This document shows, piece after piece, positions 53,575 through 57,450 of a stretch of 64,000 nt of DNA. Origin of the DNA: Ferruginibacter sp. GTDB lineage: Bacteria > Bacteroidota > Bacteroidia > Chitinophagales > Chitinophagaceae. The DNA is taken from assembly GCA_044225605.1 (NCBI GenBank), contig JBGAIJ010000005.1, positions 82,704-146,703 on the forward strand, in the 5' to 3' direction. Under the pieces are notes generated by a model. It did not search any database and had not been told where the DNA came from. It worked only from the letters and a program-made list of their open reading frames with translations. Positions within the stretch are counted from its first letter, which is position 1; every line of letters starts with the position of its first letter. The translations under genes were made by a program, and so were the position numbers.

Positions 53575-55527
53575 ATGGAAATAAAGCCAGGCCCGCTTTT
53601 AAGTACTATAAATTCCCCAGCAGATTTAAAAAAAATAAGCCGGGAAGATTTGCATAAAGTGTGCGACGAACTGCGCCAGTATATTATTGATGTGGTGAGT
53701 GTGCACGGCGGCCACTTTGGCGCAAGCCTTGGTGTGGTGGAATTAAGCACTGCATTGCATTATGTGTACGATACGCCCTACGACCAATTGGTGTGGGATG
53801 TAGGCCACCAGGCTTATGGCCATAAAATTCTTACCGGCCGCAGAGATGTTTTTCCTACCAACAGAAAATACAAAGGCATTAGCGGTTTTCCCAAACGCAG
53901 CGAAAGTGAATACGACACTTTTGGTGTAGGCCATTCATCTACTTCAATAAGTGCAGCATTAGGTATGGCAATGGCTGCAAAATATAAAGGCGAAAAAAGA
54001 AAGAGCATTGCCGTGATAGGTGATGGCGCCATGACAGCTGGTTTGCCTTTTGAAGCCATGAACCATGCTGGTGTGGCCGATGCAGATGTGCTCATTATTT
54101 TGAATGATAACTGCATGAGCATTGACCCGAATGTGGGAGCGCTGAAGGAATATTTAACCGACATTACCACTTCTCAAACTTATAATAAAGTAAAAGACGA
54201 AGTGTGGAAGCTGTTAGGAAAATTACCCGTGGGTAAAACTTTCAGCCGTTCTATGGCGCATAAATTAACCGAAGGTGTAAAAGGTATGGTAAGCGGCAGC
54301 GCTAATTTATTTGAATCATTAAAGCTGCGTTACTTTGGCCCAATTGACGGGCACAATATTACCAAGCTGGTAGATACACTCAATGATTTAAAAAATATTC
54401 CCGGTCCAAAAATTTTGCACATACTTACTGTAAAAGGTAAAGGATATGATTTAGCAGAAAAAGACCAAACCCTTTGGCATGCACCCGGTTTGTTCGATAA
54501 AGTAACCGGCGAAATACAAAAAAAGAAATTCGATATTCCGCAGCCCATGAAATACCAGGATGTATTTGGTTACACCATGATAGAGCTGGCGGAACAAAAC
54601 GAAAAAATATTTGGCATCACGCCAGCCATGCCAAGCGGCTCTTCTTTAAAATACATGATGGAAAAAATGCCCCACCGTGCTTTTGATGTGGGCATTGCAG
54701 AGCAACACGCCGTAACATTAAGCGCCGGTATGGCAACGCAGGGTATGAAGGTGTTCTGCAATATCTACTCATCATTTATGCAAAGGGCCTACGATATGGT
54801 GGTGCATGATGTGGCCATACAAAAACTGCCCGTGGTATTTTGTTTAGACAGGGCAGGCCTTGTGGGTGAAGACGGTCCCACACACCACGGCTGTTACGAT
54901 ATTGCTTACATGCGCTGCATACCCAACATGGTGGTGTGTGCACCCATGAACGAACGGGAACTGCGTAACATGATGTACACTGCACAACTGGAAAGCAAGA
55001 AACTGCCCATAAGCATACGCTACCCACGTGGCGAAGGTGTAATGCCTGATTTGCAAAAAGATACCATGGCAGAAAAATACCCGTTTGAAGAAATACAAAT
55101 TGGTAAAGGCCGTAAAATAAAAGACGGTGCTGAAGTAGCAATACTAAGCTTTGGCCACCCCGGCAATTTTGCTGCCGCCGCCATACGTGATGTAAAGCCC
55201 GAGGGCATTAACCCGGCGCATTACGATATGCGTTTTGCAAAACCCATTGATGAGGAACTGCTGCATGAAGTGTTTACTAAATTCAATAAAATAATTACGG
55301 TGGAAGATGGTACGGTAGTGGGCGGCTTTGGTACTGCTGTGTTAGAGTTTATGAATGCACACGGTTACAAAGCAGCCGTAAAAATTATGGGCATACCAGA
55401 TGAACTGATTGAGCACGGCACACCCAAACAACTGTACAGCGAAATTGGTATTGATGCCAATGGTATTGCGGAAGCGGTGAGAGAAATTGTAAGTATTAAT
55501 GTAAATAAATTAGTGAGTAGTAGATAA
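53575..55527 (+). CDS. dxs: 1-deoxy-D-xylulose-5-phosphate synthase
   Basis: GGHFGASLG, WDVGHQAY, GDGAMTAG...NDN, GIAEQHAV and DGPTHHG. Confidence 0.96.
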   Translation: MEIKPGPLLSTINSPADLKKISREDLHKVCDELRQYIIDVVSVHGGHFGASLGVVELSTALHYVYDTPYDQLVWDVGHQAYGHKILTGRRDVFPTNRKYKGISGFPKRSESEYDTFGVGHSSTSISAALGMAMAAKYKGEKRKSIAVIGDGAMTAGLPFEAMNHAGVADADVLIILNDNCMSIDPNVGALKEYLTDITTSQTYNKVKDEVWKLLGKLPVGKTFSRSMAHKLTEGVKGMVSGSANLFESLKLRYFGPIDGHNITKLVDTLNDLKNIPGPKILHILTVKGKGYDLAEKDQTLWHAPGLFDKVTGEIQKKKFDIPQPMKYQDVFGYTMIELAEQNEKIFGITPAMPSGSSLKYMMEKMPHRAFDVGIAEQHAVTLSAGMATQGMKVFCNIYSSFMQRAYDMVVHDVAIQKLPVVFCLDRAGLVGEDGPTHHGCYDIAYMRCIPNMVVCAPMNERELRNMMYTAQLESKKLPISIRYPRGEGVMPDLQKDTMAEKYPFEEIQIGKGRKIKDGAEVAILSFGHPGNFAAAAIRDVKPEGINPAHYDMRFAKPIDEELLHEVFTKFNKIITVEDGTVVGGFGTAVLEFMNAHGYKAAVKIMGIPDELIEHGTPKQLYSEIGIDANGIAEAVREIVSINVNKLVSSR

Positions 55528-55629
55528 TTAGTAGAAAATTTAATTTATTTTTTAAAAAGGTAGAAATTAAGTTATTAGAACATATCTTTATGAAATAACA
55601 AAACCTTAAGATTTCCCTATTTCATAAAG

Positions 55630-56058
55630 ATGAATGAAATTCTTGCAAATTCTTATTTTAAGGATTTTATAATACCATTACTTGCTGTTTTTATAACGAT
55701 TGGTGTGAAAGTTGTTAGTAGACGTGATACATTCATGCAAATGAGCAGGGATGATTTCGCAATTGGTTTTGACCTTGTTGTGAGTTCATTGATATTATTA
55801 GCAACTTATTCATCAAAAATTGCTATAGAATTACATGAAAACAAAGCTGTTAATCCTGAACTCTGTAAATCAAAGCTTGAATATTTACCATGGATACTTT
55901 TCTTTGCCGTTCTAGGTTTATGGGGTTTATCAACCTTTGTGCGAAAATATGGATGGATAAATAATAGTAGTCAAACTCTTAGAATGTGGCCAGGAGTTAT
56001 AATTCCTCTTATTTTAGGGTTAGTAGCATTATTATTAACTGTTAATTTTATTGAATAA
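55630..56058 (+). CDS. Hypothetical membrane protein, about 4 TM helices
   Basis: Four hydrophobic stretches. AT-rich. TAATG stop/start overlap with the TIR gene. Confidence 0.75.
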   Translation: MNEILANSYFKDFIIPLLAVFITIGVKVVSRRDTFMQMSRDDFAIGFDLVVSSLILLATYSSKIAIELHENKAVNPELCKSKLEYLPWILFFAVLGLWGLSTFVRKYGWINNSSQTLRMWPGVIIPLILGLVALLLTVNFIE

Positions 56059-56624
56059 TGTTAGAAGTCATTAATAGATATTTTTCGATTATTGCAATAG
56101 CAGTATCAACGCTTGGATTATTTATACTTAGTTATAAATCCGAAACGGATATCTCTATCCTTAAATTCTTTTTGGGATTTCTTGGCGGGATTGCTGGAAT
56201 AGGGATATCATATTTTGCTGGTAAAATAATTTTAACTAAGCCTAAATCTACAGTATTCATAGTGCATTCACTTCATGATAAAGCGTTTGCTATGAAGTTG
56301 TCAAGCACACTGGAAAAGAAAAAAATAAAAGTTATTGATGAAGATGAGATTATTCAAGTCGGAGATAATATTGTTACAGAATCGAAGAAGGCAATTGAAG
56401 AAAGTGATTATGTGATTTTTATTTTATCGAATGATTCAAAAAAAGATAAGATTATTCATAAATTAATAGTTCAAAGCAAATCAAAAGCAAAAAAAATAGT
56501 GCCTGTTATTATTGAAAAAGGTGAAGAAGTGCCTAATCTAATTTCTTCATATAAGGCAATTGATACCACAGAAAATTATGAAAAGGCTACTAACGAGTTA
56601 GCCAATCGATTAATTGGAGCATAA
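56058..56624 (+). CDS. TIR-domain protein with two N-terminal TM helices
   Basis: VFIVHS..DKAFAMKL...L....IKV......IQVGDN......AIEESDYVIFILS...KIVPVII follows the TIR_2 pattern. Confidence 0.8.
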   Translation: MLEVINRYFSIIAIAVSTLGLFILSYKSETDISILKFFLGFLGGIAGIGISYFAGKIILTKPKSTVFIVHSLHDKAFAMKLSSTLEKKKIKVIDEDEIIQVGDNIVTESKKAIEESDYVIFILSNDSKKDKIIHKLIVQSKSKAKKIVPVIIEKGEEVPNLISSYKAIDTTENYEKATNELANRLIGA

Positions 56625-56653: not shown

Positions 56654-56677
56654 GTAGTTGGTCGCCTTACCAACTAC
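56654..56677. other. Perfect 9-bp hairpin between the TIR gene and the convergent LytTR gene
   Basis: gtagttggt-cgcctt-accaactac. No U-tract on either side. Confidence 0.6.
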
Positions 56678-56691
56678 ACTACTCAAACTGC

Positions 56692-57450
56692 TTAGTCCTT
56701 CAACCAATTCAAAAACGCCGTAATCTTCGTTTTGTTAATCACAATCTCTGCATTGGTTTGTACAGTAAGCACTACAAATAGTTTACGCAGGCCGTAATGC
56801 ATTACTTCTTTAACAGCAGTTTTATTTACAAGGTACTGGCGGCTGGCACGGTAAAATTGTGCGCCGCATATATCTTCCAGCTCATCCAACGCATAGTTAA
56901 CATTATACTTTTCGTTGTTAAAAGTTATAATGCTGGTGCCTTTAGCTTCGGTGCTAAAAAAAGCAATATCGCTTGTTTTTACGGGTATAATTTTATTGGC
57001 AGCATTTACCAGCAGTGTAGCAGGTTTGGGTGTTTTACCTGTAACCGCATCCAGCAATTGTGTATAGTTAATATTTACGGCAGGTGTAAATGCTTTTTCC
57101 AGCAACTGGTATTTCTGTAAAGCTTTTTTAATTGTGTCTTTACTGTATGGTTTTAATACATAAGCAATACCATTGTTGTCAAAAGCTTCCAGTGCATGCT
57201 GGTTAAAAGCAGTACAGTAAATTACAGGTGCCGTGCTTTTAACTTCGTTAAACACTTCAAAGCTGTAACCATCGCCTAATTGTATATCACTAAAAATTAA
57301 ATGCGGTGTTTGTGCTGTACGCATATAACTCACCGCTTCTTTAACCGAACGCAGCGTACTGCTGATGGTGATATCGCTGTTTATTTCATGCAACAATCCT
57401 GCAAGGTCGTCGGCCACCATTTTTTCATCTTCTATAATTACAACATTCAT
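56692..57450 (-). CDS. LytTR-family response regulator
   Basis: VIIEDE, FSDIQL, FCTAF-like motif and FYRASRQYLVN LytTR domain. Confidence 0.92.
   Translation of the reverse strand: MNVVIIEDEKMVADDLAGLLHEINSDITISSTLRSVKEAVSYMRTAQTPHLIFSDIQLGDGYSFEVFNEVKSTAPVIYCTAFNQHALEAFDNNGIAYVLKPYSKDTIKKALQKYQLLEKAFTPAVNINYTQLLDAVTGKTPKPATLLVNAANKIIPVKTSDIAFFSTEAKGTSIITFNNEKYNVNYALDELEDICGAQFYRASRQYLVNKTAVKEVMHYGLRKLFVVLTVQTNAEIVINKTKITAFLNWLKD

Follow-up and report, generated by a model that had tools for sequence, protein, structure and literature searches.

Kiwa is a membrane-associated defence complex in which a small four-transmembrane (4TM) protein, KwaA, is found beside the cytosolic protein KwaB. 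Thoeris systems are recognized by a gene for a TIR-domain protein, ThsB, that adjoins the gene for its cognate effector in one operon. A recent preprint describes 29 putative Thoeris types, and many of the effectors in it are made only of transmembrane (TM) segments (Yirmiya et al., bioRxiv 10.64898/2025.12.03.692087). Type II has ThsB and a Macro-TM protein, type VII has ThsB and a SLATT protein, and type V, which is enriched in Bacteroidota, has ThsB and the 3-TM protein DUF2270/ThsF (10.64898/2025.12.03.692087). Rst_2TM_1TM_TIR likewise combines small TM proteins with a TIR protein. This system belongs to the P2-like phage AC1 hotspot, is carried by a mobile element, and protects against phages lambda, LF82_P8, and P2 (Rousset et al. 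2022, PMC9122126). A two-gene locus that can be compared with these systems is described here from Ferruginibacter sp. (assembly GCA_044225605.1, contig JBGAIJ010000005.1, positions 82,704 to 146,703 of the forward strand). The whole stretch analysed, 64,000 nucleotides (nt), is called the window. Gene 1 of the pair encodes a 4TM protein and gene 2 encodes a TIR domain that is anchored by a two-TM (2TM) hairpin. The pair is tentatively read as a membrane-embedded module for conflict with phages.

The pair resembles Thoeris, CBASS/Pycsar, the AC1 system, and Kiwa in logic, and, judged from its sequence, it lacks what defines each of them. As in Thoeris, it is a two-gene operon for a TIR_2/ThsB-like protein and a small multi-pass membrane protein, it is mobile, and it is sometimes located in defence islands. 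The operon arrangement by which Thoeris is recognized was found for the pair in all loci. Unlike in Thoeris, a 2TM hairpin anchors the TIR protein to the membrane, and the TIR appears exchangeable for TPR-like or other domains among the partners of the 4TM family. In addition, the window clade, which has eight members, does not possess the glutamate (Glu) needed for a signal derived from ADP-ribose (ADPR), and it does not qualify as ThsB. Gene 1 does not match any described Thoeris effector (SIR2-SLOG, Macro-TM, SLOG, caspase-like, DUF2270, DUF6650, SLATT, CMP hydrolase, ion channel, or HIT hydrolase). In the available portion of Table S1 of the preprint, the only '4TM' is '4TM SLOG', a different and larger effector (10.64898/2025.12.03.692087). 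Rst_2TM_1TM_TIR has three genes, is found in Enterobacteria, and has a TIR that is described apart from its two TM proteins, whereas the window pair has two genes, one for the 4TM protein and one for a 2TM-TIR fusion, is found in Bacteroidota-type genomes, and does not share that layout. Kiwa also has a small four-TM protein encoded beside a working partner. However, no KwaA match was present among the PADLOC results for 117 members of the gene 1 family, and the partner is a 2TM-TIR protein and not a DUF4868 protein. For CBASS and Pycsar, there is no cyclase near the pair, gene 2 does not have a SAVED or cNMP-binding domain, and the PycTIR/CAP12 matches are to the TIR core only. The PADLOC models PDC-S66, bSEFIR, RT-TIR, PycTIR, and ThsB likewise matched the TIR core of gene 2 and left the 2TM region and gene 1 unmatched. 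The animal TLR/MyD88 adaptors are similar to the window protein in having a TIR fold without the Glu of an NAD+ hydrolase (NADase), located at the membrane and working by assembly rather than by catalysis. Common descent of the two architectures is unsupported, and it is only the missing Glu that suggests a non-catalytic role at the window.

The initial annotation of this stretch had held that the pair fits no known layout. This was borne out in PADLOC, NCBIfam, Pfam, and the searchable literature, where no match was found. Full-text literature searches returned no bacterial description of a pair of this TM-TIR type, nor does one appear in a domain-centric screen from 2026. It was not borne out for the general layout of a TIR with a small TM protein, which is now known from Thoeris (2025) and AC1. 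The pair probably sits with the conflict modules made of a TIR and a membrane protein, as one whose 4TM family is undescribed and whose membrane-tethered TIR is unusual and probably non-catalytic.

The four-helix protein and its anchored partner

Gene 1 (55630-56058, + strand) encodes a protein of 142 amino acids (aa) with four TM helices, which belongs to a family that has no name and comprises about 272 clusters (50% identity). Gene 2 (56058-56624, + strand) encodes a protein of 188 aa whose N-terminal 2TM hairpin is followed by a TIR domain in the cytosol. Both open reading frames of the initial annotation were recovered, and their translational coupling was confirmed by a TAATG overlap (56056-56060, + strand) in which the TAA stop codon (56056-56058) and the ATG start codon (56058-56060) have one base in common. 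This 1-nt overlap is present in 7 of the 8 loci of the window clade (the window and six homologous loci), while L008 has a 2-nt gap. The spacing of the two genes in distant loci is mostly -4 to +12 nt.

Seven loci were found behind the close relatives of gene 1, and each has a gene for a 186-191-aa 2TM-TIR protein directly downstream. More widely, the next gene encodes an N-terminal two-helix hairpin in every locus that has downstream DNA (22 distinct loci). The gap between gene 1 and its partner is -23 to +12 nt, with the sole exception of L030, where it is 178 nt. Co-occurrence elsewhere had been set beforehand as the test of the proposed pair, and gene 1 was found with a 2TM-anchored gene in every informative locus. 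The initial annotation had also described the unit as a TM protein with a TIR protein. This is true of 18 of the 22 loci, which have 2TM-TIR partners. The domain behind the hairpin is TPR-like in two loci (L021 and L035), unknown in one (L017), and absent in one, which has a bare hairpin.

A number of partners and gene 1 copies depart from the usual form. Two 2TM-TIR partners, L037:338-1243 and L028:990-2135, have extra C-terminal domains, of which one is LprI-like (PF07007, 5e-9) and the other, of about 180 aa, has no Pfam match. The bare hairpin, L030:4599-4901, is a protein of 100 aa that lacks a cytosolic domain and consists of the 2TM hairpin with a short tail rich in Lys and Glu. Its gene has as neighbours a possible toxin-antitoxin pair and the HsdR gene of a type I restriction system. 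A degenerate 4TM gene, L038:987-1358, retains TM helices 1 and 2 together with the SRND and EDFAIG motifs, then diverges and stops, and no partner gene comes after it.

The pairwise identities of gene 1 and of its partner are correlated at r=0.90 over 105 locus pairs. Thus, the two genes have been inherited and transferred together. Mean identity within the window clade is 61% for gene 1 and 36% for gene 2. Synonymous sites are saturated, with proportions of synonymous differences (pS) of 0.71-0.83, and pS is therefore given with the proportion of nonsynonymous differences (pN) in place of dN/dS. Gene 1 has a pN of 0.14-0.24 and gene 2 one of 0.31-0.39. Both genes are under purifying selection, because pN is well below pS. 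By these measures, constraint is weaker on the TIR partner than on the 4TM protein.

The initial annotation had read gene 1 as nearly all membrane helices, and this agrees with its AlphaFold2 model, which was built with 117 homologues. The model has four helices, at residues 8-30, 46-69, 76-107, and 119-141, and a small beta-hairpin at 109-117 (mean predicted local distance difference test, pLDDT, 88.9; predicted template modelling score, pTM, 0.78). Counts of Lys and Arg per sequence over the 117 members are 6.95 for loops 1 and 3 and 2.29 for the N-terminus and loop 2. Because of these counts, loops 1 and 3 are placed in the cytoplasm by the positive-inside rule, with both termini of gene 1 outward. 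Loop 1 (aa 30-45; 55717-55764, + strand) contains the motifs S30-R31-x-D33 and D42-x-A44-x-G46, and its location is indicated by conservation as well as by charge. Loop 3 (aa 105-119; 55942-55986, + strand) contains R105, G108, and W109, which are 91-97% conserved, and the beta-hairpin of the model. A further motif in TM4, G122-xxx-P126-xxx-G130 (55993-56019, + strand), is 93-97% conserved and of the helix-packing type. The positions that are at least 70% conserved lie almost all on the cytoplasmic face or at the membrane boundary (K27, S30, R31, D33, D42, A44, G46, R105, G108, and W109). The hairpin of gene 2 puts the TIR in the cytoplasm, and the TIR is thus faced by the conserved side of gene 1. 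All of the family motifs, S-R-x-D, D-x-A-x-G, R-x-x-G-W, and G-xxx-P-xxx-G, are present in the gene 1 protein of the window.

The gene 1 protein did not match any family in Pfam, NCBIfam, or PADLOC. Among the 117 family members, no consistent Pfam family was found, none of the 117 matched DUF2270 or SLATT, and no PADLOC model matched more than one member (single strays to PycTM and PDC-M18B only). No structural analogue was found in the PDB (best E 0.23, TM-score below 0.5) or in BFVD, and a search of the gene 1 profile against PDB sequences gave one chance-level match only.

When 5.8 billion proteins were searched with a word index, gene 2 gave no relatives and gene 1 no more than eight, which are 60-72% identical to it apart from a fragment at 83%. 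A profile was then run exhaustively against 1.84 billion representatives, clustered at 50% identity, and recovered 272 clusters of the gene 1 family at E<=1e-3 and 123 at E<=1e-10, nearly all of 135-165 aa. Where members have a name, as in Larkinella knui and Flectobacillus, it is only 'hypothetical protein'. To sample distant members, exact look-ups were combined with motif scanning of metagenomes and reference genomes. The motif scan found 5 loci in 185,579 species genomes (in Flavipsychrobacter, a Bacteroidetes metagenome-assembled genome, Calditrichaceae, Thermoanaerobaculia, and Planctomycetota), which makes the family rare, and 15 loci in metagenomes. By these searches, gene 1 represents an undescribed and unnamed four-TM family with a fixed genomic partner.

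Four of the scanned contigs, L020, L023, L034, and L036, end inside the 4TM gene or shortly past it. These ends may be assembly breaks at a variable or mobile region. Some family members have long insertions or extensions, including P0141 (327 aa), P0128 (232 aa), and P0098, P0109, and P0029 (214-239 aa), and several are extended at the N-terminus. P0141 has an insert of about 90 residues between TM2 and TM3, which is charged and coiled-coil-like, and another of about 125 residues between TM3 and TM4.

The TIR domain and the missing glutamate

The reading of gene 2 as a membrane-anchored TIR was upheld. Its TM hairpin (about aa 8-57; 56079-56228, + strand) has helices at about aa 8-26 and 32-57, in which S17, G20, G43, and G47 are invariant in the clade. 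The TIR_2 domain (PF13676, aa 66-181; 56253-56600, + strand) scored 66.2 bits in Pfam against a cut-off of 28 (E=5e-18). In the AlphaFold2 model of gene 2, the TIR part has pLDDT 80-88 and matches the TIRs of SARM1, SPARTA TIR-APAZ, and MyD88 with Foldseek E values of about 1e-6. Searches of PADLOC and NCBIfam gave partial matches to the TIR core only, the best to PDC-S66 (3e-8 over 65 residues). The matches to ThsB models in PADLOC were weak and partial (3e-4).

Cleavage of NAD+ (nicotinamide adenine dinucleotide) by TIR domains needs a catalytic Glu, as in SARM1 (E642), AbTIR (E208), ThsB, and plant TIRs. The position of this residue in canonical TIR NADases and in the related 2TM-TIR partners is occupied in the window by a lysine, K135, with codon AAA (56460-56462, + strand). 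The column was examined in an alignment of 18 2TM-TIR partners, 8 from the window clade and 10 distant. All ten distant partners have E in this alphaC column, in the motifs YFNEI (L019), NTEL, FEREL, WQSKEL, VKEEL, FVSEEL, VQLEI, AFEV, WVNFEL, and FQLEEI. Further Glu-bearing relatives, P0013 and P0014, have SEWCLKEF. The eight members of the window clade have K, K, Q, K, R, N, K, S at this position. No conserved acidic column is present in the clade between aa 130 and 139. In a profile alignment with AbTIR, the Glu of NYEL falls opposite a hydrophobic column, and there is a four-residue deletion at the place of the usual Trp. Two acidic positions in the region of the BB loop, E95 and position 97, are conserved in the clade. 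This acidic pair is not an obvious replacement, because the Glu-bearing sister L019 has both residues too.

L019, from a Flavipsychrobacter metagenome-assembled genome, is the nearest Glu-bearing system, with a gene 1 that is 58% identical to that of the window. Because of this nearness, Glu appears to have been lost once, in the ancestor of the window clade. The initial annotation had implicitly treated gene 2 as an ordinary NAD+-cleaving TIR, and this has to be given up for the clade. The TIR of the window is probably not an NADase, and an assay for NAD+ cleavage would probably be negative. The TIR of the Glu-bearing relatives may cleave NAD+. In a survey in Escherichia coli, mutation of conserved residues in the NADase active sites abolished defence in all 12 of the active TIR systems.

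Composition and genomic setting

The pair is more AT-rich than its neighbours, as had been proposed from a comparison with dxs. The guanine-plus-cytosine (GC) content of the pair is 0.298 (gene 1, 0.303; gene 2, 0.295). It is higher in the window (0.394), in dxs (0.438), and in the LytTR gene (0.381). Among all 995-nt stretches of the 64 kb, the pair has the lowest GC content, more than 4 standard deviations below the mean of such stretches (mean 0.394, standard deviation 0.022). Only 0.3% of these stretches have a GC content as low, and each of them overlaps the pair. In every homologous locus, the GC content of the pair is below that of its locus. Judged by composition, the pair is horizontally acquired and of foreign origin, because it is the lowest-GC kilobase of the window and because its GC content is below that of the locus in all homologous loci.

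The flanking genes were both identified by domain matches, in agreement with the location that had been given between dxs and a convergent LytTR gene. The 5' neighbour is dxs (53575-55527, + strand; DXP_synthase_N E=2e-117). The convergent 3' neighbour encodes a response regulator with a LytTR domain (56692-57450, - strand) and is followed by a His_kinase gene. Flanking direct repeats, an integrase, and a tRNA were looked for as marks of insertion at the window locus, and none was found. An empty insertion site was not found either, because every contig with an identical LytTR or gene 1 protein also carries the pair in the same place.

The leader between dxs and gene 1 (55528-55629, + strand) is AT-rich, with a GC content of 0.186, and is presumed to be the promoter region of the pair. 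No terminator-like site was found between dxs and gene 1. The leader contains an inverted repeat, ATCTTTATGAAATA / TATTTCATAAAGAT (55584-55631, + strand), with a perfect 14-bp stem (55584-55597 and 55618-55631) and a 20-nt loop. The 3' arm overlies the start codon of gene 1, and the RNA fold has an energy of -12.9 kcal/mol. The repeat could possibly be an operator or a translational hairpin, and it is probably either a local regulatory feature or due to chance. It is not counted as part of the system, because it is not conserved upstream of the homologues (14 homologous loci). The 67-nt spacer between gene 2 and the LytTR gene has a host-like GC content of 0.493 and contains a hairpin (56654-56677) with a 9-bp GC-containing stem (GTAGTTGGT/ACCAACTAC). 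This is possibly a terminator common to both convergent genes; a consensus terminator scan called no terminator there.

The homologous loci are found in a variety of contexts. L001 (Flectobacillus sp. BAB-3569, NJFZ01000003.1) is prophage-like, with T4 gp36-like tail-fibre genes upstream and an integrase downstream. L002 is in a region like an integrative and conjugative element (ICE), with TraG, YWFCY, RadC, and an integrase. The pair of L005 adjoins a PDC-M01A/PDC-M01B candidate defence system (L005:3075-7238) and a gene for a trypsin-like protease. The PDC-M01 protein is a PtuA-like AAA_15/21 ATPase with an AbiJ_NTD3 N-terminus (3e-135). The pair of L030 adjoins a type I restriction endonuclease.

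Extra TIR genes were found within 5 kb of the pair in four loci, two with Glu-less pairs (L001 and L008) and two with Glu-bearing pairs (L029 and L034). In L001, a soluble TIR protein of 258 aa with the catalytic Glu intact (L001:5167-5943) is encoded 57 nt 5' of the 4TM gene. It stands at the end of the tail-fibre block and before the integrase, in a prophage-like 'moron' position with three TIR-related genes running. In L008, a different pair of a small TM protein (138 aa) and a TIR protein (185 aa) is located about 2 kb upstream of the 4TM/2TM-TIR pair (L008:438-1417). Its TIR matches the PADLOC ThsB model at about 1e-48 and keeps a catalytic motif, SKWCNWEL, and this second pair is possibly a further Thoeris variant with a TM effector. 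The 138-aa protein was considered as a relative of the 4TM family and rejected (hhalign probability 0.2%), and it has no Pfam family. The use of a neighbouring catalytic TIR in trans by the Glu-less pairs was also considered and rejected, since extra TIRs are found with both classes and are absent from the window and from four other loci of the clade.

Weighing of the explanations

In the favoured explanation, the pair was acquired horizontally and forms a conflict module of two subunits, embedded in the membrane, that serves anti-phage defence or abortive infection, with the 4TM protein as its output and the tethered TIR as its sensor or scaffold. Its probability is put at about 0.4. Gene 1 would be a four-helix subunit of the inner membrane with its termini outward and its two conserved basic loops in the cytoplasm. 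The two-helix hairpin of gene 2 would insert beside it and hold the TIR against its cytoplasmic face. The slow-evolving 4TM subunit would be the constant output, as an ion leak or pore aided by the G122xxxP126xxxG130 packing motif. The fast-evolving and exchangeable cytosolic domain of the partner, in most loci a TIR and in some TPR-like or other, would be the input. On a trigger, this domain would self-associate or change its conformation, and the change would be passed through the tether directly to the membrane subunits. In the window clade, the TIR is most likely a non-enzymatic scaffold or sensor, because the catalytic Glu is lost, and the membrane would be the source of growth arrest or death. 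Most relatives have a Glu-bearing TIR and could possibly add cleavage of NAD+. The anatomy of the genes, their constant pairing and co-divergence, purifying selection, the topology, the lost Glu, and the absence of a family match are shown by the data, whereas we infer the physical 4TM:2TM-TIR complex, the direction of signalling, the permeabilization of the membrane, and the defence role. The defence role is plausible.

There are several points that weigh against this explanation. The neighbourhood of the window copy is one of housekeeping genes (dxs, the two-component system, BamH, and others). As the initial annotation had expected, no cyclase, SIR2, Macro, or Argonaute gene is encoded among the ten flanking proteins, and PADLOC gave no full-system match for the pair or any match for these neighbours. 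The window copy is thus alone among housekeeping genes. The link to defence neighbourhoods that had been suggested is seen at several loci in prophage, ICE, or defence-gene contexts, and it is not seen at the window, L007, L022, and L027, where the contexts are ordinary. An association with mobile and defence DNA is suggestive for about 15 loci, a count that has no formal background control. The family was not found, at the sensitivity used, in collections of phage genomes (50,697), plasmids (72,556), and IMG/VR contigs, and tblastn of the gene 1 and gene 2 proteins against the 50,697 phage records returned nothing. No homology was detectable between the 2TM hairpins of TIR and non-TIR partners (E 0.17 and 1.7), and because of this the swapping of partner domains on one 2TM anchor is suggested by architecture only. 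A catalytic acid that has moved elsewhere in the TIR of the clade is also possible.

One alternative is a Thoeris-like mechanism, in which the TIR makes an ADPR-derived molecule from NAD+, the basic loops of the 4TM protein bind it, and the opening that results kills the cell. A TIR gene with a small all-TM neighbour is now a recognized Thoeris layout, the distant 2TM-TIR partners keep the catalytic Glu, and the basic cytoplasmic face of the 4TM protein (R31, R105, and others) resembles the nucleotide-signal pockets that are proposed for ThsF of type V. Signalling of this kind may well occur in the Glu-bearing relatives. However, the catalytic Glu is replaced in 8 of 8 members of the window clade, and Thoeris-style signalling or depletion of NAD+ is unlikely there; in the E. 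coli survey, all 12 systems lost defence once the TIR active site was mutated. A diffusible signal would also leave the membrane tether of every member unexplained. In addition, the 4TM protein matches no described effector family (0 of 117 for DUF2270, SLATT, or any other consistent Pfam family), and the extra catalytic TIR genes nearby are not preferentially with Glu-less pairs. The TPR-like, unknown, and hairpin-only partners are incapable of making a TIR-type, NAD+-derived signal, and thus direct coupling is favoured for the family as a whole. It is preferred over a diffusible signal because of the universal tether, the non-TIR partners, the slow 4TM protein, and the Glu-less clade, and we regard the Thoeris-like mechanism as improbable. 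The polarity could also be reversed, so that a 4TM/2TM complex senses phage attachment, DNA injection, or perturbation of the envelope, and the TIR then depletes NAD+. Kiwa, with its 4-TM KwaA and KwaB, and Zorya are precedents for such membrane-embedded sensors, both subunits of the pair are located in the membrane, and the distant Glu-bearing TIRs could be NADase effectors. Yet the window clade is Glu-less and would have no NADase output, and TPR-like or absent cytosolic domains are implausible as effectors. Sensors usually outpace effectors in evolution, whereas the 4TM protein is the slow component, and the lack of any PADLOC model shared by family members, with PycTM and PDC-M18B as strays, speaks against the reversed order as well. 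Such a reversal seems quite improbable.

It is rather unlikely that the pair has a role outside immunity, as a toxin-antitoxin or addiction module, a holin-like or superinfection-exclusion function, or an accessory membrane function on mobile DNA. Its small size, coupling, and horizontal mobility would fit such a role, as would its presence on prophage-like (L001) and ICE-like (L002) DNA, the solitary position of the window copy amid housekeeping genes, and the rarity of the family (5 of 185,579 species genomes by motif scan). Against this, bacterial TIR domains are overwhelmingly tied to immunity, and known or candidate defence genes are among some of the neighbours. The absence of the family from the phage genomes and IMG/VR contigs argues against a core function in phage lysis. 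The pair could otherwise be a decaying remnant without current function, in which the Glu-less TIR is a pseudo-enzyme that is being lost. The canonical catalytic residue is gone, and a degenerate copy of gene 1 is known elsewhere (L038). But there are eight deeply diverged, independent loci with both frames intact, seven of them with the 1-nt overlap, gene 2 has 16 invariant residues, pN is well below pS, and the identical pair is present on every contig with the flanking genes. Decay is highly improbable on this evidence.

The favoured explanation, of a conflict module with a tethered sensor and a 4TM output, has a more specific form. The window clade would have an adaptor-type, non-catalytic bacterial TIR that signals by assembly and gates a four-helix effector, within a modular '4TM + 2TM-X' platform. 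This form is doubtful as it stands. Its logic would be nearer to the scaffolding of animal TLR/MyD88 than to Thoeris.

Without a defence phenotype, the pair would still be a clean case of a conserved membrane hetero-pair. If validated, the 4TM family of about 272 clusters could join the catalogues of defence systems. If the proposal is true, the '4TM + 2TM-X' family would be a modular membrane defence platform with exchangeable cytosolic sensors, among them TIR, TPR, and others. The Glu-bearing sisters, such as L019, are a natural comparison for the Glu-less clade. All of the bacterial TIR defence systems that were found described make use of the TIR active site or depended on it, whether for the depletion of NAD+ or for the synthesis of a signal. 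A Glu-less TIR that is under purifying selection and locked to a highly conserved membrane partner would show that bacteria, too, possess TIRs that act as scaffolds or sensors, like those of animals.

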